A DNA stretch of 8,050 nt from a virus (Duplodnaviria; Heunggongvirae; Uroviricota; Caudoviricetes). Made by a program: the position numbers and the translations under genes. Location of the stretch: positions 1 through 8,050 of IMG/VR virus record IMGVR_UViG_2778261269_000007. The stretch is one strand, 5' to 3'. Of the stretch, positions 1 through 8,050 are shown in pieces (the first letter of the stretch is position 1; every line of letters begins with the position of its first letter). The notes beneath the pieces are model-generated. The model was not told where the DNA came from. It ran no database searches and saw only the letters and a program-made list of their open reading frames with translations.

Positions 1-201
1 TTACCCATTGGCGCGGCTTAAGAGTTTATTTTTGAACTCACAATGGTCACGATATAACCATCTTGCTCGCCCGTGGATAACTTTGGCTTTAGGCAGGTCT
101 CCGGACTTAATCCGGTCATAGATGAAGGTTTTACCGAAGCCAGTATCGGCCATGATGAATTTCAAATCAACCAGTGAATCAGGTTGTAGTTCGTGTTGCA
201 T
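1..201 (-). CDS. Putative excisionase / AlpA-family DNA-binding protein (66 aa)
   Basis: Complete minus-strand ORF (ATG 199-201, stop TAA 1-3) with GGAGA 8 nt upstream. The motif DTGFGKTFIYDRIKSGDLP...RWLYRDHCEFKNKL fits the AlpA/Xis winged-helix pattern. It sits at the distal end of the leftward early operon, where xis lies in lambdoid phages. It is not lambda Xis by sequence. Confidence 0.6.
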   Translation of the reverse strand: MQHELQPDSLVDLKFIMADTGFGKTFIYDRIKSGDLPKAKVIHGRARWLYRDHCEFKNKLLSRANG

Positions 202-240
202 GAGTGCTATCTCCGAATAGGGAATCGAACCTGCAAATCA

Positions 241-267
241 GGCAATAAAAAACCGCCATCAGGCGGC
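241..267 (-). terminator. Rho-independent terminator-like hairpin (minus strand)
   Basis: The minus strand reads GCCGCC-TGAT-GGCGG followed by TTTTTTATT. Stem arms lie at 253-257 and 262-266, with the U-tract encoded by the A-run at 244-251. Confidence 0.5.
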
Positions 268-426
268 TTGGTGTTCTTTCAGTTCTTCAATTCGAATATT
301 GGTTATGTCTGCATGTGCTATCTGCGCCCATATCATCCAGTGGTCATAGCAGTCGTTGATGTTCTCCGCTTCGATAACTCTGTTGAATGGTTCTCCATTC
401 CATTCACCTGTGACTCGGAAGTGCAT
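259..426 (-). CDS. Small hypothetical phage protein (55 aa, MHFRVTGEWNGEPFNRVIEAENINDCYDHWMIWAQIAHADITNIRIEELKEHQAA)
   Basis: Hand-translated minus-strand ORF below the ORF-track size cut-off. ATG at 424-426 is preceded by GGAGA; the stop TGA (259-261) lies in the loop of the terminator hairpin. It fills the gap between the Ea8.5-like gene and the excisionase gene. Confidence 0.4.
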   Translation of the reverse strand: MHFRVTGEWNGEPFNRVIEAENINDCYDHWMIWAQIAHADITNIRIEELKEHQAA

Positions 427-439
427 TTATCATCTCCAT

Positions 440-464
440 AAAACAAAACTCGCCGTAGCGAGTT
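440..464 (-). terminator. Rho-independent terminator-like hairpin (minus strand)
   Basis: The minus strand reads AACTCGC-TACG-GCGAGTT followed by TTTGTTTT. Arms lie at 447-453 and 458-464, directly downstream of the 515..796 gene. Confidence 0.45.
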
Positions 465-514
465 CAGATAAAAGAAATCCCCGCGAGTGCGAGGATAGTT
501 ACTTGTTCATATTA

Positions 515-796
515 TTAATCGTCAATGTATTTTGAGCATTGTGGGCAATCATCAATCCCACAATACGATTCATATGCATCCTTTATTGCGTCGCGGGCTT
601 CAGTAAGAGTATTGAATAAGTTGCAGCTATTATCTTTTTGATATAGGTAAGTTCCTAATTTATAAGCAGAAGAAGCATCATTTCCGCTGTCTAAAATTAC
701 ATCGTTATGGATTCTGCACCTTGCAAGAACTCCTGATCCCATAAGGGTCTGCATAGCCCATTGCTCTTGATCTTCACACAAATCATGAATGCTCAT
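515..796 (-). CDS. Ea8.5-like small protein with C-terminal CxxC (93 aa from the internal ATG)
   Basis: Minus-strand ORF 515..814 in the track. The ATG at 794-796 has a GAGAGGTG Shine-Dalgarno 5-7 nt upstream, so the start is probably MSIHDLCEDQEQWA. C-terminal ...YCGIDDCPQCSKYIDD, the length, and the position between the ea22-like gene and xis resemble the lambdoid Ea8.5 family; the family assignment is from memory. Confidence 0.5.
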   Translation of the reverse strand: MSIHDLCEDQEQWAMQTLMGSGVLARCRIHNDVILDSGNDASSAYKLGTYLYQKDNSCNLFNTLTEARDAIKDAYESYCGIDDCPQCSKYIDD

Positions 797-910
797 TTCA
801 ACACCTCTCTTCACGTTTCACACACGTTAAGATTAACAGTGTTTTTACATGTTTTGGAAGATTTATTTTATAAAAACTCTTTTAATACAAATAGATATAA
901 TAGTTCACTA

Positions 911-1384
911 TTATAGCTCCTTTAATCGAGGCGGTTCAGGTAGAGGCATCCAGTGGGTTACCTCTTTGAGATACAGGTCTTCGCCATCACCGTCATCCCA
1001 AGTGGGATTGCCATCATTAAACCAGTCGCCATATACGCCGACCTGAGTGTTGGGGATGTTTGGTGGGTAGTTGTTTTTAAAGTCAGCTGCTAACACATAG
1101 CATTGTCGCTCTCCCATTTCTGGCATTCGCTCACTACAGCTTATCCAACCATCCGGAGTTACCGGAGAGTTGCCCGACAGCTCGTTCAACTTGTAAGTCT
1201 GGCTTACAGGCTCGACTTCCAGTGATGCCAGCGCAATTCGTGCCAGTTCTAGTTCTCGTGCAACCATCTCAATAACAACTTTGCAGTCCGCACCTTCTTT
1301 GCTAACACGTCCTTTCAAGTCTTCCAGATAACTAACGCTTTCGCGTGCATGGGAGATTAACTGTTCTTTGGTAAATGTTGTCAT
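911..1384 (-). CDS. Phage protein with C-terminal DUF551-like domain (157 aa)
   Basis: Minus-strand ORF with GAGG upstream of ATG 1382-1384. The C-terminal GWISCSERMPE...VTHWMPLPEPP matches the characteristic DUF551 signature common in E. coli prophage accessory regions. Confidence 0.55.
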   Translation of the reverse strand: MTTFTKEQLISHARESVSYLEDLKGRVSKEGADCKVVIEMVARELELARIALASLEVEPVSQTYKLNELSGNSPVTPDGWISCSERMPEMGERQCYVLAADFKNNYPPNIPNTQVGVYGDWFNDGNPTWDDGDGEDLYLKEVTHWMPLPEPPRLKEL

Positions 1385-1578
1385 TGATAGCCTCTACTTA
1401 TATTTTGGGGTTCGATCACACATAAGGAATCCAGTCACGTATGAGTAAGCACAATCCCACTTATCCCCCTTGCTGATAGCAACTCCTTCACTTAATCCAC
1501 GGTTATAGCCAGCACTCTCACCGACTCAAATGCCGCCAAAACCAAAAACAAATGCGATAACAATGGTGTAAAGTTGTC

Positions 1579-2202
1579 TCATGCCTTCTCCTGCTGGCTA
1601 ATAACTTCGTGTTCTCTACTGCTTTCCAACACTGATACAGCCTGGAAAGCCTCTTTAAGCACCCAGTCAACAGCGTCTTTCCATGCTCCTGTTTCGACTG
1701 GCGGATTTTCACGCTTAACCTGTTCATAGAAGCTCACTGCTTTAACCAGTCCTTCCGGCACTACTGGCGATGGCTGTTTAGCTTCTAAATCAGCAATTCT
1801 GTCAACAACGGCATCAACGGCATCAGAAAAGCCGAACCAGTTACTCCACTCCGGCCTATCCCCGGTTGCTGCAAAGTACATATCAGCTAAAGCAGACTCA
1901 GCATGGTCACGCTCATTAATGAGTTGCTCTTCGCTTTTCTCCAGCTCTGCAATGCGTTTGCTTTGAGCTTCCAGTTCATCAAGAAGCGCAAGCACGGTAG
2001 CCGGATTAGCCTTGGCAACAAAATCCCGGACTGGCTTACAATCAATCTCCGCAATGGGTTGATACAATGTGTAGCCATGCTGTCTTGTATAACTACCGTG
2101 ACGAATAACGAAAAAATCACCATTTATTTTTTTAGCCTGCCACTTATCTTCACCTGCTTTCTCTGCCGCCTCACGCAGTACCTGATAGTCAATCTTGCTC
2201 AC
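1579..2202 (-). CDS. Ead/Ea22-like family protein (207 aa)
   Basis: Minus-strand ORF starting at GTG 2200-2202 with GGAGG 6 nt upstream. The N-terminus [17 protein letters not shown] is the typical start of ead/Ea22-like prophage proteins, followed by coiled-coil-like LEAQSKRIAELEKSEEQL. Confidence 0.6.
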   Translation of the reverse strand: MSKIDYQVLREAAEKAGEDKWQAKKINGDFFVIRHGSYTRQHGYTLYQPIAEIDCKPVRDFVAKANPATVLALLDELEAQSKRIAELEKSEEQLINERDHAESALADMYFAATGDRPEWSNWFGFSDAVDAVVDRIADLEAKQPSPVVPEGLVKAVSFYEQVKRENPPVETGAWKDAVDWVLKEAFQAVSVLESSREHEVISQQEKA

Positions 2203-2455
2203 TGGTTGCCTCCGTTTCCCACGTTTTCAGACTTTCACCACAGAACGGGCAAAATAAAACCCGAATCGGCGATTTAGAAAACTCGCCTGACCGAAGCATG
2301 ATCAGATCTTGTGAATGAATTAATTCATGGTTATAGATTTTGTATTTCAGCAGACCTTTTCGCGTCGTGTATTCAGCGTCATGCTCCAAGGATTGCGTCA
2401 ACGCCGAGCACGGTTCTATCTTATTGCCATTAATTTGGCATTTTGACTCACTCAC
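2189..2455 (-). CDS. Hypothetical Cys-containing small protein (88 aa; Cys at 6, 16, 69, 72 including CPFC)
   Basis: Minus-strand ORF with GTG start at 2453-2455 and AAGGAGG 6 nt upstream. Its 3' end overlaps the ea22-like start. Four cysteines suggest a possible metal-binding ribbon. No recognisable family. Confidence 0.45.
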
Positions 2456-2619
2456 TGGTTGCCTCCTTTACGCCACATCGCATTCAGATATTTGTTTTGA
2501 TTTACTGATGGAAAAGAATTTCTCTTAAGTAATTCCTCTCTCGATGGCATTGGCTTTACGCGTTGGCGAATAATCATTTCTGCCAGAAGAATGCCGGGAT
2601 TGTATGCAAGTCCTCTCAT
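2452..2619 (-). CDS. Small hypothetical protein (55 aa, [55 protein letters not shown])
   Basis: Hand-translated minus-strand ORF below the track cut-off. ATG at 2617-2619; stop TGA at 2452-2454 overlaps the GTG start of the downstream gene in a GTGA arrangement typical of translational coupling. The Shine-Dalgarno is weak. Confidence 0.3.
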
Positions 2620-2635
2620 GGTAAATTCCACTTTG

Positions 2636-2956
2636 TTAATTTATTCGTATTCCTGTTCTCTCTTCATCGAGTTTTTTTAGCTTGTATCGCATAGCCCTTA
2701 CTGAATAAATTGAGCGGCAGGTTGCAATTGCTATTTCTTCTGCGGAGAACTTACCGAAAAGTGATACTTCGGCTCTTGTCCATCGTCTTCCACGAAGTCG
2801 GCTAACAATGTCAGCGCCAATCCTTGTTGCTTTCGCCATAACTGCTTTTTCAGTCCTTTCCAGTTTTTCAGCGATAACTTCAACTGGCATTGTCGCCGCT
2901 ACTTCGCGCAAGAAATCGACTTCCCATTTCTCCCATGGAGTCTTTTTCATAGGCAA
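2636..2956 (-). CDS. Hypothetical protein with two tandem helix-turn-helix-like (Myb/SANT-like) repeats (106 aa)
   Basis: Minus-strand ORF. Internal repeat [12 protein letters not shown]...[19 protein letters not shown] and [36 protein letters not shown] indicates a duplicated small DNA-binding-like module. Domain assignment is by pattern only. Confidence 0.45.
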
Positions 2957-2961
2957 TACCG

Positions 2962-3444
2962 TTATTTGATAAGAAGTGAAGGTTTCCCAACTTTGAGTTG
3001 AGCGCCGGGGATATTTATTCCTGCTTTTAGTTGGTGTTTGATTGCCAGTTTGTCGGCTTTAATTGTCGTTTCAAACTCAACGTATTCAGGAGGAAGGGCG
3101 CTTGAGTCGATTATTTCTACAATTTCTGACGGTTTGCGGATTGTTACCTGGTGAATACCTGCTCGAATATTTTTCTTGCCAACCATTTCAAGCGATGACG
3201 CTATATATGATTTGATGCTGTCAATCTTATTTTGAATTACTGCGGCTCGCTCATTCAGTGACTTTGCCTCTTCCTTGAGGCGTTCGGCATAACCAGATTC
3301 ATTTTTAATGACGGAAAGAAGTTGTTCTATTTTATCGGTAAATTCTCCTTCCATGCCTTCTATTGTGTCAGCAATCATCTCTGGTTCTAAATCTGAATCC
3401 ATCAATTTTGCGTATTCATTGGCAATTTCATACAGTTTGCTCAC
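2962..3444 (-). CDS. Phage protein, coiled-coil rich, possibly Gp157-family, encoded immediately downstream of recT (about 160 aa)
   Basis: Track ORF 2962..3450. GGAGG lies at 3451-3455, immediately adjacent to the TTG, so the start is more likely GTG 3442-3444. It overlaps the recT 3' end by 17 nt. The N-terminal half is charged and helical (EYAKLMDSDLEPEMIADTIEGMEGEFTDKIEQLL...RLKEEAKSLNERAAVIQNKIDSIK). The family name is a low-confidence recollection. Confidence 0.5.
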   Translation of the reverse strand: MSKLYEIANEYAKLMDSDLEPEMIADTIEGMEGEFTDKIEQLLSVIKNESGYAERLKEEAKSLNERAAVIQNKIDSIKSYIASSLEMVGKKNIRAGIHQVTIRKPSEIVEIIDSSALPPEYVEFETTIKADKLAIKHQLKAGINIPGAQLKVGKPSLLIK

Positions 3445-4330
3445 TGGCAACCTCCAGTTTAGCTTTGCATTCTGCGTAAATGGCTTGTACGTTCTGCTGC
3501 AATTTCATTCCAGATGTCAGGCGATATGCTTCTGCAAAATATCGCTTCAAATCATCCATGTTTTCTGCCTGAGCCATTTCATCACAAAGAAGTTGTGCTT
3601 TATCCATTATTTCCTTCTGGCGTTTCCGTTCATCTTCGCGTATATCTTCCTCTGATTTGTGCGGCATAACTGGTTCCTGATGCATACCTTCATCCTCGTT
3701 AAGCAGGTGAATGGCATTATCCAGTCGCTGGGCTTTAGGCCAGTATTTGCTGGCGCGTTTAACTATTGTTTTACGCGCCATCTCTTCCCAGAATGTCTTC
3801 CACGGTCCATTCTTTGCCTTGCTCGTTGCTTCCACAGCTTTAATTTCTGCCAGACTCATTTCTTCAGTCAGGTAGTCACCATCTGCTGTTTTAACCGTGC
3901 AATAACCACCAACAATAGAGCCTCGCTCACCAAATGCGTTGTATTTGTGGGTTGGTGCTGAATCAAGGCCGTTTGATTCATAGGTGTCGTTTGAGTACAC
4001 CAGTTTGCATTGCCCCCACTTAATTGAGCCTGTCGATTGCGCAAGATGAAGTAATCCCATATAGCTGATATCAAGGCAAACCATGCCGTCGCGCGGAACC
4101 AGATAAGCCAGTTTGCTGGCCGGGTTTAAGGTGATGCCGATCGCCGCAACATTGATGATGGCGTTCTGTGCGCTGGTTGGATTTGCCAGTGCCGTTTTAG
4201 CAAGGTAATCGTTTTTCTGGAAATACTGAATTGCAAACTGGCTTTCCTTAGCCCATGTAACCGTCTGTTCAGTCAATGCTCCGCAGAATAACTGCTCCTG
4301 CTGTTTAACGAATTCAACGATATTGCTCAT
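3428..4330 (-). CDS. recT: RecT-family single-strand annealing recombinase (300 aa)
   Basis: Minus-strand ORF. The C-terminal region NGPWKTFWEEMARKTIVKRASKYWP parallels the E. coli RecT segment NNGPWVTHWEEMAKKTAIRRLFKYLP, and the overall architecture is RecT/Red-beta like. It occupies the position of bet in the lambda PL operon. Confidence 0.8.
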   Translation of the reverse strand: MSNIVEFVKQQEQLFCGALTEQTVTWAKESQFAIQYFQKNDYLAKTALANPTSAQNAIINVAAIGITLNPASKLAYLVPRDGMVCLDISYMGLLHLAQSTGSIKWGQCKLVYSNDTYESNGLDSAPTHKYNAFGERGSIVGGYCTVKTADGDYLTEEMSLAEIKAVEATSKAKNGPWKTFWEEMARKTIVKRASKYWPKAQRLDNAIHLLNEDEGMHQEPVMPHKSEEDIREDERKRQKEIMDKAQLLCDEMAQAENMDDLKRYFAEAYRLTSGMKLQQNVQAIYAECKAKLEVASEQTV

Positions 4331-4638
4331 GCAGCTTCTCCAAAAATGTGTCTGCGTTTGAATATTGCGAAGGCATATTCAGCCTTAACTCTTTCGGTTA
4401 TTGCATCCCAGAACCATTCAGCGGCTTTTTCCTGATAGTTACAGTCATCATCTTCCAGCCAGTCGATAGCGTCCTTAGTGTGTTCATCTGGTTTATATGA
4501 GCGAAGCATTTCGCTTATTGGGTCGCAACGTTTGCAGAGGCGATCAACTTCACTGTTGATTCGCTCGTAATCTTCATCAGTAAAACTTGCGATTATTTGC
4601 GATATTTCACGCTTATCATTCAGAGTCAGAATCATCAT
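4327..4638 (-). CDS. Hypothetical acidic protein translationally coupled to recT (103 aa); candidate host-nuclease modulator
   Basis: Minus-strand ORF whose stop overlaps the recT ATG (ATGA at 4327-4330). It occupies the gam/abc position immediately upstream of the recombinase. No family recognised from sequence. Confidence 0.55.
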   Translation of the reverse strand: MMILTLNDKREISQIIASFTDEDYERINSEVDRLCKRCDPISEMLRSYKPDEHTKDAIDWLEDDDCNYQEKAAEWFWDAITERVKAEYAFAIFKRRHIFGEAA

Positions 4639-4723
4639 CTTTCTCCTGTTCTTTGTGCTGATTGAGCATTTTGTTCATCTGACGAATGAATTCTTCGTCT
4701 GACCAGTTATCTGTAAAACTCAT
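4616..4723 (-). CDS. Small acidic hypothetical protein (35 aa, MSFTDNWSDEEFIRQMNKMLNQHKEQEKDDDSDSE) in the kil position
   Basis: Hand-translated ORF. ATG 4721-4723 overlaps the stop of the cIII-like gene (ATGA), and the 3' end overlaps the start of the 103-aa gene. Positionally equivalent to lambda kil but with no sequence resemblance that I can confirm. Confidence 0.3.
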   Translation of the reverse strand: MSFTDNWSDEEFIRQMNKMLNQHKEQEKDDDSDSE

Positions 4724-4890
4724 GGGCGGCCTTGTTGTTTCAAAATATCCCAAAGCTTTTCGAGCAAACTTTTCATTCTTGGTTGTTTAAAGTCTGCTCC
4801 GGTTAAAATATTTTTTCGTGAATGCTGTACCGATAAAATCGGGTTGAAAGGGCGAACCGATGCCGCCCCTGCAATAGCGAACTGTTGCAT
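4720..4890 (-). CDS. cIII: cIII-like protein (56 aa from the internal ATG)
   Basis: The track ORF 4720..4995 has an internal ATG at 4888-4890 with AAGGAG 7 nt upstream. From there the product MQQFAIAG...SLLEKLWDILKQQGRP resembles lambda CIII (MQYAIAG...LLERI...LIDILNQPG). The upstream part of the track ORF spans a terminator hairpin and is unlikely to be coding. Confidence 0.45.
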   Translation of the reverse strand: MQQFAIAGAASVRPFNPILSVQHSRKNILTGADFKQPRMKSLLEKLWDILKQQGRP

Positions 4891-4956
4891 AGGATGCTCC
4901 TTCTGTTTGATTGCATAACGAAAACGCCTCGAGTGAAGCGTTATTGGTATGCATAT

Positions 4957-4980
4957 AAAAAGGCCCTCACACTGGAGGGC
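4957..4980 (-). terminator. Rho-independent terminator-like hairpin between ral and the cIII-like gene (tL2-like position)
   Basis: The minus strand reads GCCCTC-CAGTGT-GAGGGC followed by CTTTTT. Arms at 4963-4968 and 4975-4980; the U-tract is encoded by the A-run at 4957-4961. Confidence 0.45.
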
Positions 4981-5116
4981 AAAGAAGATTTCCAATAATC
5001 AGAACAAGTCGGCTCCTGTTTGGTTACGAGCGACATTGCTCCGTGTATTCACTCGTTGGAATGAATACACAGTGCAGTGTTTATTCTGTTGTTTATGCCA
5101 AAAATAAAGGCCACTA

Positions 5117-5317
5117 TCAGGCAGCTTTGTTGTTCTGTTTACCAAGTTCTCTGGCAATCATTGCCGTCGTTCGTATTGCCCATTTATCGACATATTTCCC
5201 ATCTTCCATTACAGGAAACATTTCTTCAGGCTTAACCATGCATTCCGATTGCAGCTTGCATCCATTGCATCGCTTGAATTGTCCACACCATTGATTTTTA
5301 TCAATAGTCGTAGTCAT
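5117..5317 (-). CDS. ral: Ral, restriction alleviation protein (66 aa)
   Basis: The minus-strand ORF MTTTIDKNQWCGQFKRCNGCKLQSECMVKPEE... matches my recollection of lambda Ral in length and sequence, and it lies downstream of N as in lambda. Confidence 0.7.
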   Translation of the reverse strand: MTTTIDKNQWCGQFKRCNGCKLQSECMVKPEEMFPVMEDGKYVDKWAIRTTAMIARELGKQNNKAA

Positions 5318-5387
5318 ACGGATAGTCCTGGTATTGTTCCATCACATCCTGAGGATGCTCTTCGAACTCTTCAAATTCTTCTTCCAT
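5301..5387 (-). CDS. Small acidic ORF (28 aa, MEEEFEEFEEHPQDVMEQYQDYPYDYDY), lambda orf28-like
   Basis: Hand-translated ORF. ATG 5385-5387 is preceded by GAGGTGA; the stop at 5301-5303 overlaps the ral start by 17 nt. Length and position between N and ral match the lambda orf28 annotation as I recall it. Confidence 0.4.
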   Translation of the reverse strand: MEEEFEEFEEHPQDVMEQYQDYPYDYDY

Positions 5388-5395
5388 ATATCACC

Positions 5396-5722
5396 TCAAA
5401 TAAGTGGTTTGCTGCCTAATTTCATTTTCTGGCGACCAACACAAGTCACACCCATTTCACTGCATGGCTTGCTGTACCATGTGCGCTGATTCTTGCGTTC
5501 AATACGTTGCAGGTTGCTTTCAATCTGTTCGTGGTATTCAGCCAGCACCGTAAGGTCTATCGGATTAAGTGCGCTGTCTACTCGTGATTTCGGTTTGCGA
5601 TTCAGCGAGAGAATAGGGCGGTTAACTGGTTTTGCGCTTACCCCAACCAACAGGGGATTTGCTGCTTTCCATTGAGCCTGTTTCTCTGCGCGACGTTCGC
5701 GGCGGCGTGTTTGTGCATCCAT
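5396..5722 (-). CDS. N: Antitermination protein N (108 aa)
   Basis: The minus-strand ORF MDAQTRRRERRAEKQAQWKAANPLLVGVSAKPVNRPILSLNRKPKSR... is near-identical to lambda N as recalled, including the arginine-rich boxB-binding motif at the N-terminus. AGGAG lies upstream of the ATG. Confidence 0.9.
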   Translation of the reverse strand: MDAQTRRRERRAEKQAQWKAANPLLVGVSAKPVNRPILSLNRKPKSRVDSALNPIDLTVLAEYHEQIESNLQRIERKNQRTWYSKPCSEMGVTCVGRQKMKLGSKPLI

Positions 5723-5920
5723 CTGGATTCTCCTGTCAGTTAGCTTTGGTGATTGGATGGCCGGCGCTGAACCCCGGCTTACTGGTTAGAGCGCCCGCAC
5801 TACCAGTGACGCTGTCTTGAGGCGCAGATTGGTTACTGCTTGCCATGAGCGCTGTTTATACATTGGTCGAGCATCAGCCTGCTCATTCATCCAATCCCAA
5901 AGCCTTCTGCTTTGAATGCT

Positions 5921-5951
5921 GCCCTTCTTCAGGGCTTAATTTTTAAGAGCC
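5921..5951 (-). promoter_or_regulatory. nutL site (boxA variant plus boxB hairpin)
   Basis: The minus strand reads GGCTCTTAAAAATTAAGCCCTGAAGAAGGGC. boxB GCCCTGAAGAAGGGC (plus 5921-5935) is identical to lambda nutL boxB. boxA is GGCTCTTA (plus 5944-5951), against CGCTCTTA in lambda. Confidence 0.8.
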
Positions 5952-5983
5952 TCACCTTCATGGTGGTTAGTACGTCCTGCTGA

Positions 5984-6019
5984 TGGCTAAATAGTACGAT
6001 TTGTACTTTATTGAGTCAA
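5984..6019 (-). promoter_or_regulatory. PL early leftward promoter
   Basis: The minus strand reads TTGACT (-35, plus 6014-6019), a 17-nt spacer, TACTAT (-10, plus 5991-5996), then the start at the A of ATCAGCAGGACG (about 5984), which is the lambda PL transcript start sequence. Confidence 0.7.
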
Positions 6020-6032
6020 TACAAAATGTTCT
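5993..6032. promoter_or_regulatory. Putative OL operators (palindromic repressor sites overlapping PL)
   Basis: A perfect palindrome AGTAC-N5-GTACT at 5993-6007 overlaps the -10. A related site AATAC-N5-GTTCT at 6018-6032 overlaps the -35. The pattern differs from lambda OL (TATCACCGC...), consistent with a different immunity. Confidence 0.45.
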
Positions 6033-6083
6033 AAATATAATTAGTTTTTTATAACGCTTTGTATTTAATGGGTTTATATTTTG

Positions 6084-6114
6084 GAAAAAGAAAACCCGAC
6101 GCTAAGGTCGGGTT
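6084..6114 (-). terminator. Rho-independent terminator downstream of cI
   Basis: The minus strand reads AACCCGAC-CTTAGC-GTCGGGTT followed by TTCTTTTT. Arms at 6093-6100 and 6107-6114, about 30 nt after the cI stop. Confidence 0.5.
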
Positions 6115-6144
6115 ATTGTTGTGTGTTTTAGAGTTGTGAGGCTG

Positions 6145-6798
6145 TTAACTAAATGTCTCTTCAGGCCACTGGCTGGCGATAACTTTCCCTACTACGGAAC
6201 AGCTATCATTGCATGGAATCATTGGATATTGCGGGTTTAGTGGCTGTAGGAACACCTGACCGCTATCCCTGATCAGTTTCTTGAAGGTAAACTCGTCACC
6301 ACCAAGTCTGGCTATGCAGAAATCACCTGGCTCAACAGCCTGCTCAGGGTCAACGAGAATTAACATCCCGTCAGGAAAGCTTGGCTTGGATCCTGTTGGA
6401 GCGGTCATGGAATTACCTTCAACTTCAAGCCAGAACGCACAATCACTGGCTTTTTTGGTTGTGCTTACCCATCTCTCCGCATCACCTTTGGTAAAGGTTC
6501 TAAGCTCAGGCGAGAACATCCCGGCCTGAACATGAGAAAAAACAGGGTACTCATATTGTTTTTTAACGGGGGCAGATGAGTATTCGCCAACAGGTGAAAA
6601 TGTACCGTCGTGGTTGAATGAGACGTTATCAATACCAAGGTATTTAAACACCACACCAATCTCGTCAAGAGATGGATGACGAGATCCGCGCAACCAGTGA
6701 CCAATTCCACCCTGCGTCATACCAAGCTCTTCAGCTAACTTCTCTTGAGTTATGCCGAGCTCTTTCATTCTGGATCTAGCCAGTTCATACCATTTCAT
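6145..6798 (-). CDS. cI: CI-type prophage repressor (HTH N-terminal domain plus S24 LexA-like C-terminal domain)
   Basis: The C-terminal 130 or so residues ([29 protein letters not shown]...[28 protein letters not shown]...[28 protein letters not shown]...) are near-identical to lambda cI as recalled, including the GNSM serine and the catalytic lysine region. The N-terminal HTH ([23 protein letters not shown]) is unlike lambda. The track ORF extends to a TTG at 6846, but an operator-like palindrome at 6814-6828 and an AAGGG Shine-Dalgarno favour ATG 6796-6798 (or 6802-6804). Confidence 0.85.
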
Positions 6799-6813
6799 TT
6801 TCATACCCTTATT

Positions 6814-6896
6814 ATTACGCTCTGTACTAAAACCATCCATGCACAAGATGTATTTTTTGTTTGCATTCTAAAAGTACATATCGTATTATTGTTTCA
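6814..6896. promoter_or_regulatory. OR operator region with PR (plus strand) and the presumed PRM (minus strand)
   Basis: PR: TTGCAT (6861-6866), 17-nt spacer, TATTAT (6884-6889), start near 6896, followed by GGAGGG and the cro ATG. Operator-like palindromes AGTAC-N5-GTATT (6872-6886, over the PR spacer and -10) and ATTAC-N5-GTACT (6814-6828) belong to the same family as the OL sites. The PRM hexamers could not be placed with confidence. Confidence 0.55.
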
Positions 6897-6915
6897 TGGT
6901 TACTATGGAGGGCAT

Positions 6916-7131
6916 ATGAGCAACCTACGAAAATATCGAGAGTCACTGAATATCTCTCAAACAACACTTGCTAAGGCAGTTGGATGCACACAGGGAGCTA
7001 TCGGACATTGGGAATCTGGTCGTCGCTTCCCAGACCTTAAAACATGCCGTGCTCTTGTTGAGTGCCTAAACAAGTTAGGCGCAAAAGTCAGTCTTGATGA
7101 CGTGTTCCCGCCGGAACACAAAGCCGCTTAA
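6916..7131 (+). CDS. cro: Cro-like repressor (71 aa, XRE-family HTH)
   Basis: First plus-strand gene after PR, with GGAGGG 4 nt before the ATG. The HTH QTTLAKAVGCTQGAIGHWESG resembles the HTH of the adjacent cI N-terminus. Not lambda Cro by sequence. The track ORF 6745..7131 is 5'-extended through the operator region. Confidence 0.8.
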   Translation: MSNLRKYRESLNISQTTLAKAVGCTQGAIGHWESGRRFPDLKTCRALVECLNKLGAKVSLDDVFPPEHKAA

Positions 7132-7139
7132 GACATTCC

Positions 7140-7171
7140 CGCTCTTACACATCCCAGCCCTGAAAAAGGGC
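7140..7171 (+). promoter_or_regulatory. nutR site (boxA CGCTCTTA plus boxB GCCCTGAAAAAGGGC)
   Basis: The sequence CGCTCTTACACATCCCAGCCCTGAAAAAGGGC matches lambda nutR as recalled. The following segment up to the cII start also matches the lambda tR1 / cII leader. Confidence 0.8.
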
Positions 7172-7227
7172 ATCAAATTAAACCACACCTATGGTGTATG
7201 CATTTATTTGCATACATTCAATCAATT

Positions 7228-7273
7228 GTTATCTAAGGAAATACTTACATATGGTTCGTGCAAACAAACGCAA
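7228..7273 (-). promoter_or_regulatory. PRE (cII-activated repressor-establishment promoter) with TTGC-N6-TTGC cII-binding repeats
   Basis: The minus strand across the cII start reads TTGCGTTTGTTTGCACGAACCATATGTAAGTATTTCC, the lambda PRE arrangement as recalled. The direct repeats TTGC...TTGC lie at plus 7260-7273. Confidence 0.6.
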
Positions 7274-7544
7274 CGAGGCTCTACGAATCGAGAGTGCGTT
7301 GCTTAACAAAATCGCAATGCTTGGAACTGAGAAGACAGCGGAAGCTGTGGGCGTTGATAAGTCGCAGATCAGCAGGTGGAAGAGGGACTGGATTCCAAAG
7401 TTCTCAATGCTGCTTGCTGTTCTTGAATGGGGTGTCGTTGACGACGACATGGCTCGATTGGCACGACAAGTTGCTTCGATTCTCACCAATAAAAAACGCC
7501 CGGCGGCAACCGAGCGTTCTGAACAAATCCAGATGGAATTCTGA
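7251..7544 (+). CDS. cII: Transcriptional activator CII (97 aa)
   Basis: From ATG 7251 the product MVRANKRNEALRIESALLNKIAMLGTEKTAEAVGVDKSQISRWKRDW... is essentially identical to lambda CII as recalled. The track ORF 7191..7544 is 5'-extended. Confidence 0.9.
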   Translation: MVRANKRNEALRIESALLNKIAMLGTEKTAEAVGVDKSQISRWKRDWIPKFSMLLAVLEWGVVDDDMARLARQVASILTNKKRPAATERSEQIQMEF

Positions 7545-7566
7545 GGTCATTACTGGATCTATCAAC
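7490..7566 (-). ncRNA. oop: oop antisense RNA (overlaps the cII 3' end)
   Basis: The minus strand from about 7566 reads GTTGATAGATCCAGTAATGACCTCAGAA...GTTGCCGCCGGGCGTTTTTTATT, matching lambda OOP RNA with its terminator as recalled. The ends are approximate. Confidence 0.55.
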
Positions 7567-7576
7567 AGGAGTCATT

Positions 7577-8050
7577 ATGACAAATACAGCAAAAATACTC
7601 AACTTCGGCAGAGGTAACTTTGCCGGACAGGAGCGTAATGTGGCAGATCTCGATGATGGTTACGCCAGACTATCAAATATGCTGCTTGAGGCTTATTCAG
7701 GCGCAGATCTGACCAAGCGACAGTTTAAAGTGCTGCTTGCCATTCTGCGTAAAACCTATGGGTGGAATAAACCAATGGACAGAATCACCGATTCTCAACT
7801 TAGCGAGATTACAAAGTTACCTGTCAAACGGTGCAATGAAGCCAAGTTAGAACTCGTCAGAATGAATATTATCAAGCAGCAAGGCGGCATGTTTGGACCA
7901 AACAAAAACATCTCAGAATGGTGCATCCCTCAAAACGAGGGAAAACCCCCTAAAACGAGGGATAAAACATCCCTCAAATTGGGGGATTGCTATCCCTCAA
8001 AACAGGGTAAGCGTCAACGGAGCACCGTATTGACGCTTATTTATTGGTGA
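7577..8050 (+). CDS. O: Replication initiator O, N-terminal iteron-binding part; frame terminates prematurely at 157 codons
   Basis: The product MTNTAKILNFGRGNFAGQERNVADLDDGYARLSNMLLEAYSGADLTKRQFKVLLAILRKTYGW... matches lambda O through about residue 145, then diverges (lambda ...SKQGDTKDT versus here ...SKQGKRQRSTVLTLIYW stop). Full-length lambda O is about 299 aa. CAGGAG lies upstream of the ATG. Confidence 0.85.
   Translation: MTNTAKILNFGRGNFAGQERNVADLDDGYARLSNMLLEAYSGADLTKRQFKVLLAILRKTYGWNKPMDRITDSQLSEITKLPVKRCNEAKLELVRMNIIKQQGGMFGPNKNISEWCIPQNEGKPPKTRDKTSLKLGDCYPSKQGKRQRSTVLTLIYW
7926..8007 (+). repeat. ori-lambda iterons (four O-binding repeats; the fourth is truncated)
   Basis: Four direct repeats of the TCCCTCAAA(A/T)...GGGA type at about 7926-7942, 7946-7962, 7970-7986 and 7993-8007, inside the O coding sequence as in lambda. 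The right arm of the fourth repeat is replaced by unrelated sequence. Confidence 0.8.

Follow-up and report, generated by a model that had tools for sequence, protein, structure and literature searches.

The question that this locus raises is how a repressor gene whose cleavage and dimerisation half is nearly that of phage lambda has come to stand with a DNA-binding half, a cro gene and operators that are not those of lambda, and which immunity the resulting switch would specify. The window that we have analysed is a stretch of 8,050 nucleotides from a virus of the Caudoviricetes (IMG/VR record IMGVR_UViG_2778261269_000007, positions 1 to 8,050); an earlier note, made from its letters alone, had read cI as a chimera, with one recombination breakpoint between the two domains of the repressor and another near the 3' end of cro. 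Our comparison leads us to the view that the window is very probably the early region of a lambda-like prophage that belongs, by its immunity specificity, to the VT2-Sakai group; the chimeric cI is a real, correctly read mosaic, and it is an ordinary instance of lambdoid module shuffling that has been described previously. The features on which this view is based are collected in Table 1.

Table 1. Features of the immunity region and its flanks, followed by the blocks of the window that match lambda DNA (positions are those of the window).
Feature	Positions	Strand	Remarks
N	5396-5722	minus	Pfam N36, E 1.6e-26; lambda-like
nutL boxB hairpin	5921..5935	minus	GCCCTGAAGAAGGGC on the minus strand; lambda-type
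PL promoter-like site	5991..6019	minus	TTGACT, 17-nt spacer, TACTAT
OL1	5992..6008		TAGTACGATTTGTACTT; overlaps PL -10
OL2	6017..6033		CAATACAAAATGTTCTA; overlaps PL -35
OL3	6050..6066		TATAACGCTTTGTATTT
Intrinsic terminator of the cI transcript	6093..6114	minus	hairpin, then UUUUCUUUUU
cI open reading frame	6145-6846	minus	intact open frame
cI repressor gene	6145..6804	minus	219 aa from ATG at 6804 (likely start)
Alternative cI start	ATG 6798	minus	217 aa, as annotated in VT2-Sakai and 683R2
Alternative cI starts	in-frame ATG 6840 or TTG 6846	minus	231/233 aa; inside or adjoining OR2
Lambda-type part of cI	6145..6555	minus	residues 84-219; cleavage-site linker region and C-terminal domain (dimerisation, cooperativity, autocleavage)
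N-terminal HTH DNA-binding domain and first linker part	6556..6804	minus	residues 1-83; VT2-Sakai type
PRM (putative)	6811..6839	minus	-10 TAATAA at 6817-6812, weak -35; equivalent of "putative maintenance promoter for cI" in AP000422
OR3	6813..6829		TATTACGCTCTGTACTA; overlaps putative PRM -10; counterpart of "putative operator" in AP000422, AP005153
OR2	6839..6855		ATGCACAAGATGTATTT; centre ~42-43 bp upstream of ATG 6804
PR promoter-like site	6860..6889	plus	TTTGCA, 18-nt spacer, TATTAT; position matches annotated PR of VT2-Sakai
OR1	6872..6888		AAGTACATATCGTATTA; overlaps spacer and -10 of PR
cro	6916..7131	plus	71 aa; HTH_3 type, E 1.4e-12
nutR boxB hairpin	7157..7171	plus	GCCCTGAAAAAGGGC; lambda-type
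cII	7242-7544		Pfam Phage_CII, E 1.9e-48; lambda-like
PRE CII-binding motif TTGC-N6-TTGC	7260..7273	minus	inside cII; in segment 99% identical to lambda
O, start	from 7577		lambda-like
Lambda-matching block	4953-5412		ea10-ral, 98%
Lambda-matching block	5421-5751		N, 93.7%
Lambda-matching block	5896-5985		nutL up to PL start, 96.7%
Lambda-matching block	6087-6122		terminator, 32/36
Lambda-matching block	6151-6555		3' part of cI, 94%
Lambda-matching block	7138-8007		nutR, cII, O, 99.1%

The surroundings of the immunity region are lambda-like, as had been claimed for N, nutL, nutR and cII, and PRE, if it functions as in lambda, would read leftward through cro into cI. The N leader (approximately 5744-5904) is a different module, which also occurs in IME10, Gally and some Stx2c phages; lambda 34381-35062, a segment that includes sieB, has no counterpart between positions 5412 and 5421 of the window. 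A scan of the whole window against Rfam (E up to 0.1) has returned no match. At the right edge, the similarity of O to lambda ends at approximately position 8007, inside ori iteron 4, and the final 42 nt that follow the break (GTAAGCGTCAACGGAGCACCGTATTGACGC...) are the end of an IS66-family element, with the junction at approximately 8008 and an in-frame stop at 8048; this 42-nt end recurs at thousands of sites in E. coli genomes, among them one in strain OV24 that directly adjoins an ISEc23 transposase gene.

Since O is cut by the IS66-family end, the prophage may be defective: it is probably unable to replicate, and there may be no viable phage left for the switch to control. A further-reaching reading, according to which the immunity module itself has ceased to function and is decaying within a dead prophage, would appeal to this same interruption and to the absence of sieB and rexAB; we regard it as improbable, because cI, cro, cII and N are all intact open frames, all six operators and the terminator are intact, the C-terminal half of cI differs from that of lambda by 23 synonymous and 3 non-synonymous codons, cI, OR and cro match the DNA of the isolated phage 683R2 at 99-100%, and phage Dewey encodes an identical cI protein. 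Immunity, moreover, would still be possible from a defective prophage.

The cI gene likely starts at the ATG at 6804, or else at the ATG at 6798. Its product combines an HTH_3 domain (residues 11-58, 42.2 bits against a cutoff of 23, E 8.3e-11) with a Peptidase_S24 domain that is matched over its full length (1-116 of 116, E 8.9e-29), and the Ala-Gly cleavage site (VQAG), the Ser of GNSM and the Lys of FKKL are identical in this repressor and in lambda cI; i.e. the N-terminal HTH, the S24 domain, the Ser/Lys dyad and the Ala-Gly site of the LexA/lambda-cI-type self-cleaving repressors are all present. From the 98% identity of the cleavage module to that of lambda, we infer that autocleavage would be stimulated by RecA.

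The BLASTP alignment of the whole protein with lambda cI contains 149 identities in 211 positions, and these are very unevenly distributed. From Tyr84 (YEYPVF...) to the end, 133 of the 136 residues are identical to lambda cI, and equally 133 of 136 to HK97 cI, with a DNA identity to lambda of 93-94% across 6145-6555; this part matches the lambda cI chains 3bdn (E 2e-96), 8gmu, 2ho0 and 1f39 of the PDB, and can, on this resemblance, be regarded as essentially the solved lambda structure. In residues 1-83, identity to lambda cI falls to 19 of 83 positions (23%), and the N-terminal arm of lambda cI is missing; the search of the PDB with this domain has found no close solved structure (best E 1e-4), phmmer relates it to the lambda N-terminal domain with an E of only 7e-4 to 5e-3, and the N-terminal domains of 434 and P22 in the PDB are insignificant matches (E 0.27 and 0.35). 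When other repressors are compared domain by domain, with the split at residues 1-83 and 84-219 of the window cI, the two identities are 23% and 98% for lambda cI, 94% and 96% for VT2-Sakai cI, 49% and 79% for the epsilon34 repressor, 22% and 44% for P22 c2, and 23% and 43% for the phage 21 repressor. The domain-by-domain alignment thus agrees with the earlier note in that the cleavage and dimerisation domain is nearly that of lambda and the N-terminal HTH is not.

The comparison of the window with lambda DNA has revealed no lambda counterpart for positions 5986-6086 (OL) and 6556-7137 (5' part of cI, OR and cro), and the alignments across the junctions locate the edges of these segments closely. 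Inside cI, similarity to lambda ends sharply at the codon boundary between Q83 and Y84, i.e. in the inter-domain linker, where the first breakpoint had been placed. The second breakpoint, which had been placed near the 3' end of cro, does lie at the end of this gene, but not within it: similarity to lambda starts at approximately 7141, about 10 bp past the cro stop codon. At the left edge, similarity resumes at approximately 5985, the position of the lambda PL transcription start, and at the 3' end of cI it ceases at the last two codons. The boundary in cI corresponds to lambda residue 101 (mature numbering), which is located ten residues before the Ala111-Gly112 cleavage site, so that the cleavage-site region and the catalytic domain stay together in the exchange; the lambda crystal constructs cI101-229 (2ho0, 2hnf), which are named from the same residue, match residues 83-212 of the window cI.

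We have searched the C-terminal 136 residues against 5.8 billion protein clusters and have split the 120 cluster representatives found at the position of YEYPVF. At least five unrelated classes can be distinguished among their N-terminal parts, all joined to lambda-family C-terminal domains: the class of the window (41 representatives), a third class of the HTH_19 type (41), the lambda class (25) and two minor classes. Among the lambda-family representatives, C-terminal identity does not go with the N-terminal class; a lambda-class representative from E. coli is 97.8% identical to the window cI in its C-terminal half, and representatives of the window's own N-terminal class, which are 84-87% identical in the N-terminal half, are only 81-85% identical in the C-terminal half; for the relatives of this class in other genera the two values are 84-86% and 83-85%. 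We take this pattern as the signature of exchange at the linker, in agreement with the recombination that had been proposed; going by these identities, trees of the N- and C-terminal halves would be incongruent.

A history without recombination, in which a lambda-like cI is the vertical ancestor of the gene, and only its DNA-binding half, along with cro and the operators, has diverged fast under selection for new immunity, would account for the retention of the equivalents of lambda Gln33 and Gln44, for the GM.Q.G.G motif that is common to both proteins, and for the agreement of the operator half-sites at positions 1, 2, 5 and 6 (TAGTACAA in the window, TATCACCG in lambda). We nevertheless hold it to be very improbable: DNA identity jumps from unalignable to 94% at one codon boundary; the N-terminal class is a deep family of its own, with members that are 50-87% identical in phages of Salmonella, Citrobacter, Enterobacter, Vibrio and Pseudomonas; the relatives that share this N-terminal class are more distant in the C-terminal half than is lambda, at 98%; and Cro is without detectable similarity to lambda Cro, being a different kind of protein.

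The exchange at the linker is old and not recent. The C-terminal coding DNA of the window differs from that of lambda at 27 of 411 positions, distributed over the 23 synonymous and 3 non-synonymous codons mentioned above, which argues against a recent acquisition of this part from lambda itself; the C-terminal coding sequences of the window, lambda and VT2-Sakai are approximately equidistant (91.5-93.4% nucleotide identity). The excess of synonymous codons indicates long purifying selection on a shared C-terminal module. Relatives of the same immunity type all carry the lambda-like C-terminal half too, and the chimera is a long-established allele family, common to hundreds of phages and prophages, and not an event in the present genome.

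A search for AGTAC-N5-GTACT with up to two mismatches gives four matches in OL and OR, and six 17-bp palindromic sites, three on each side, fit the half-site of the window, with A5 and C6 present in all 12 half-sites and A2 missing from only one of them; these are the six top-scoring positions of the window on their weight matrix, and, when each site is held out in turn, it ranks 1st to 6th among 8034 positions. The centre-to-centre spacings (25 and 33 bp in OL, 33 and 26 bp in OR) differ from those of lambda. We have also looked for an alternative OR2 at a lambda-like spacing of approximately 25 bp from OR1, but no 17-mer between OR2 and OR1 is among the 15 best-scoring sites of the window. 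The centres of OR1 and OR2 are 33 bp apart, compared with 24 bp in lambda, and the way in which dimers cooperate in pairs at OR may therefore depart somewhat from the lambda arrangement.

The divergent cI and cro genes, approximately 110 bp apart, with three palindromes over PR and PRM and three over PL, form the arrangement of a lambdoid bistable switch. PRM would start at or adjoining the ATG at 6804, so that its mRNA, like that of lambda, would have no leader or almost none. The number of promoter-like sites in the window equals that expected from shuffled sequences, and a promoter-like match inside cro (6960-6932, minus strand) has been taken as chance. The cro product, for which BLASTP has returned no alignment to lambda Cro, in keeping with the claim that this gene is not lambda's, is 35% identical to the N-terminal domain of the window cI, and the recognition helices of the two proteins are nearly the same (TQGAIGHW and TQGGIGHW).

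On the weight matrix of the window, the lambda operators (of the TATCACCGCCAGTGGTA type) score -6 to +4.6 bits, compared with 14-20 bits for the window's own sites; on the lambda matrix, the six sites of the window score -10.7 to +1.5 bits, compared with 15-22 bits for lambda's own. By these scores the two immunities are to be considered distinct, and the suggestion that the repressor is of the imm lambda type with a somewhat diverged N-terminus, such that a lysogen would be fully immune to lambda, is exceedingly improbable, given an N-terminal domain without the arm and with 23% identity, no lambda-type operator at OR or OL, and an unrelated Cro. The operators are thus not those of lambda, as the earlier note had recognised; they are new only with respect to lambda, since all six are exact counterparts of the "putative operators" that are already annotated in the GenBank records of VT2-Sakai and of the Stx1 phage.

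This correspondence extends to the whole DNA-binding half, and the "different" half of cI is, on comparison, the well-known VT2-Sakai immunity type. In a tblastn search with residues 1-83, 63 phage records are at least 95% identical, including the Stx1 phage of Morioka V526, Stx2 phage 1717, the PA-series Stx2a phages, phi-8 and 2B8. The full-length cI is 96.8-97.2% identical to its counterparts in VT2-Sakai, Stx2-II, 2851 and phi-8, 96% to that of the Stx1 phage of Morioka V526, and 99-100% to those of the isolated phages Dewey (100%), 683R2, 720R6 and phi458, the last of which matches residues 1-83 at 100%. With respect to VT2-Sakai (Sp5; AP000422), 78 of 81 aligned N-terminal residues are identical, and the three substitutions fall outside the recognition helix, which is itself identical; cro is 98.1% identical in nucleotides; and the same six operators occur with conserved half-sites and the same spacing, each differing at 1-2 of 17 positions, mostly central ones. 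The VT2-Sakai module, whose cI likewise has a lambda-like C-terminal half, is also found in the Stx1 and Stx2-II phages of E. coli O157:H7 Morioka V526 (AP005153, AP005154), 2851, 1717, phi-8 and the PA-series Stx2a phages. DNA identity between this group and the window is 91-95% across cI, but only 85% in OR, which makes the module of the window a sister sub-lineage; furthermore, VT2-Sakai has two ORFs between cI and OL and a different N, whereas in the window this slot is empty and N, nut and cII are of the lambda type.

The closest relatives are isolated coliphages that differ from the window in their surrounding genome. The segment from OL through the terminator, cI, OR and cro to cII is 98-100% identical in 683R2 (vB_EcoP-683R2), a P22-like phage (Lederbergvirus) that likewise has this terminator and leaves the slot empty; Louie, Dewey, 720R6 and phi458 are also closely similar from OL to cII, with the difference that phi458 carries a 348-aa ORF after cI. 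Lambda and HK97, whose cI proteins are nearly identical, share with the window the hinge and C-terminal domain of cI, including the Ala-Gly site and the Ser/Lys dyad; lambda also shares the divergent cI and cro, three operators per side, the terminator of the cI operon and the N, nut, cII, PRE and O flanks, and differs in the N-terminal domain and its arm, in the operators, in the Cro family and in the possession of rexAB and sieB. The repressor of Salmonella phage epsilon34 (gene 46) and its relatives SPN9CC and g341c display the same two-part pattern, with 49-55% N-terminal and 79% C-terminal identity to the window, and the operator proposed for epsilon34, WTACRAWWTGTAT (PMC2629481), resembles the TAC-N5-GTA core of the window; both halves of the repressor being more distant, the immunity specificity of this type is expected to differ from that of the window.

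The two-part nature of such repressors is already known from several sources. The GenBank record of VT2-Sakai labels its cI "similar to bacteriophage lambda CI" and marks the operators, PR, PRM and PL; Fattah et al. (2000), as summarised in PMC10742460, found the homology of VT2-Sa cI to lambda cI to be high in the C-terminal and low in the N-terminal part; Villafane et al. (2008; PMC2629481) described the same pattern for epsilon34, with VT2-Sa among its closest N-terminal relatives; and, in a 2022 survey that covers 260 CI proteins of Stx phages, lambda CI shares a clade with Stx-phage repressors, at approximately 61% overall identity.

Downstream of cI, the window lacks rexA and rexB, as had been noticed: lambda 35835-37226 has no match in the window, the terminator is only 30 nt away from the cI stop, and the co-transcription of rexA and rexB with cI that belongs to imm lambda does not occur. 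The terminator hairpin (dG -12.4 kcal/mol, z -4.6, with 0 of 200 shuffles as good) does start about 30 nt after the cI stop, where it had been described, but the proposal that it occupies the place of rexAB as a replacement does not hold: it aligns at 32 of 36 positions with lambda 35799-35834, a hairpin located just downstream of rexB, and one pair of its stem is changed on both sides, from G-C to A-U, a compensatory change. By this homology, the end of the cI operon is that of lambda, and nothing intervenes before it; the slot on the OL side of cI is simply empty, and the terminator is not a foreign replacement. The slot behaves like a usual variable cargo slot, holding rexA and rexB in lambda, two unrelated ORFs in VT2-Sakai, the 348-aa ORF in phi458, two orphan genes in epsilon34 and nothing in 683R2.

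Taken as the product of an old exchange at the inter-domain linker, the cI gene would operate as follows. Dimers of cI would bind the six operators through their own HTH domain, and occupation of OR1 and OR2 and of OL1 and OL2 would shut off PR and PL; occupation of OR2, whose centre is ~42 bp upstream of the cI start, would probably stimulate PRM as in lambda. The cognate Cro, with its nearly identical recognition helix, should compete for the same operators, and cI synthesis should be established from the lambda-type PRE once CII, the product of the lambda-type cII gene, activates this promoter, the cI transcript presumably ending at the conserved terminator. From ten residues before the Ala-Gly site to the C-terminus, cI consists of the lambda module, with the cleavage site, the catalytic Ser and Lys and all of the oligomerisation surface of lambda cI. 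The repressor should therefore dimerise, cooperate both in pairs and over long range, and cleave itself under RecA stimulation in the manner of lambda cI, and SOS-activated RecA would lead to self-cleavage at the Ala-Gly site. We would predict homoimmunity with VT2-Sakai-type phages and heteroimmunity to lambda.

The separation from lambda may, nevertheless, be incomplete. In lambda co-crystal structures, Gln33 and Gln44 contact operator position 2, and both have Gln equivalents in the window cI. Position 2 is also among the half-site positions that the window and lambda operators share. Lambda cI binds the VT2-Sa operators weakly, with an apparent KD of 3.7-6.4 uM compared with 0.2-3 uM on lambda sites (PMC10742460), and this weak binding, together with the shared half-site positions and the retained Gln residues, makes some weak cross-recognition between the two immunities plausible. 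[quoted passage not shown]

The shared half of the repressor offers a second, more speculative route to cross-talk. In enterobacterial prophages, at least three common N-terminal classes carry this C-terminal module, and, the hinge and C-terminal domain being 98% identical to those of lambda, it is conceivable, though we consider it unlikely, that repressors which differ in immunity type but share a cell assemble into mixed dimers, tetramers or octamers. [quoted passage not shown]

This arrangement is already known, and our finding adds little new knowledge; what it offers is a clean textbook example of how lambdoid phages are mosaics, in which the junction falls within a gene, at a domain linker. 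The module is widespread: a query of 1152 bp from OL to cro is present over at least 80% of its length in 776 of 5426 complete E. coli genomes (approximately one in seven), some of which carry more than one match. The full 8 kb is covered to at least 80% in no complete E. coli genome searched; the exact combination of modules is thus absent from this set, though each module is present in it. In practice, the immunity of the prophage can be identified as that of the VT2-Sakai type, which is carried by many Shiga-toxin phages, and a host with this module is predicted to resist superinfection by Stx phages of VT2-Sakai immunity.

In lambda, the segment at 34381-35062 contains sieB, a gene for superinfection exclusion, together with the final codons of N; this segment, which would fall at 5412-5421, has no counterpart in the window, just as rexAB is absent, and the phage therefore carries neither of the two exclusion cassettes of lambda (sieB, rexAB). 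On the other side of N, the leader that extends from nutL to the N start codon is also non-lambda and forms a mosaic patch of its own; phages IME10, Gally and vB_EcoP-611R6, as well as some Stx2c phages, have a segment with which it shares 98% identity. The left two thirds of the window (1-5390) contain many small early-left ORFs, in addition to the two ORFs that are listed first in the table. Among complete E. coli genomes, none has at least 80% of the 8-kb window matched at one place, so the exact combination of modules is absent from that genome set.

Features of the window and annotated lengths of the repressor
Feature	Position	Remark
Excisionase-like ORF	1-201	
RecT-family recombinase	3428-4330	
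N leader	5744-5904	nutL to N start codon
Terminator hairpin after cI	6093-6114	
cI start region	6798-6846	
217-aa cI		annotated in VT2-Sakai, 683R2
231-aa cI		Stx1 phage record; protein cluster with 1686 member sequences
Cro	6916-7131	
IS66-family terminal sequence	8008-8050	
In-frame stop of interrupted O	8048-8050	

The terminator hairpin that follows the repressor gene cI differs from its lambda equivalent (locus L002, 2036-2057) at one stem pair, which has changed from G-C to A-U; the compensatory nature of this change argues that the hairpin itself is under selection.

Public annotations conflict on the start of cI, giving a protein of 217, 219 or 231 aa. The start of the 231-aa form falls within the operator OR2, upstream of the inferred cI promoter PRM, so it would be usable, if at all, only on transcripts from the CII-dependent promoter PRE; an AAGGG Shine-Dalgarno-like motif is located 7 nt upstream of the ATG at 6798.

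The cI of HK97 (L007, 2740-3453) differs from that of lambda at 2 of 237 residues, and thus adds no independent comparison to the domain-by-domain alignment that the earlier note had proposed. In the laboratory hybrid Lambda h434 imm21 (OM418627; L008, 301-930), an in-frame stop interrupts the phage-21-type repressor about 52 codons from its start; only the portion beyond this stop is annotated in the record, where it is described as ‘shorter than phage 21 equivalent’. Among solved structures, residues 1-69 of Cro have a clear relative in PDB 28tn chain A (E 2.4e-16), titled ‘lambda repressor-like protein’, and the N-terminal domain of cI has no match better than E 1e-4.

At the right edge of the window, the lambda similarity of the O gene ends within ori iteron 4, and what comes next is one end of an insertion element of the IS66 family (GTAAGCGTCAACGGAGCACCGTATTGACGC...). 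This 42-nt end has thousands of matches across E. coli genomes, and in strain OV24 these 42 nt adjoin an ISEc23 transposase gene. The prophage is probably replication-defective.
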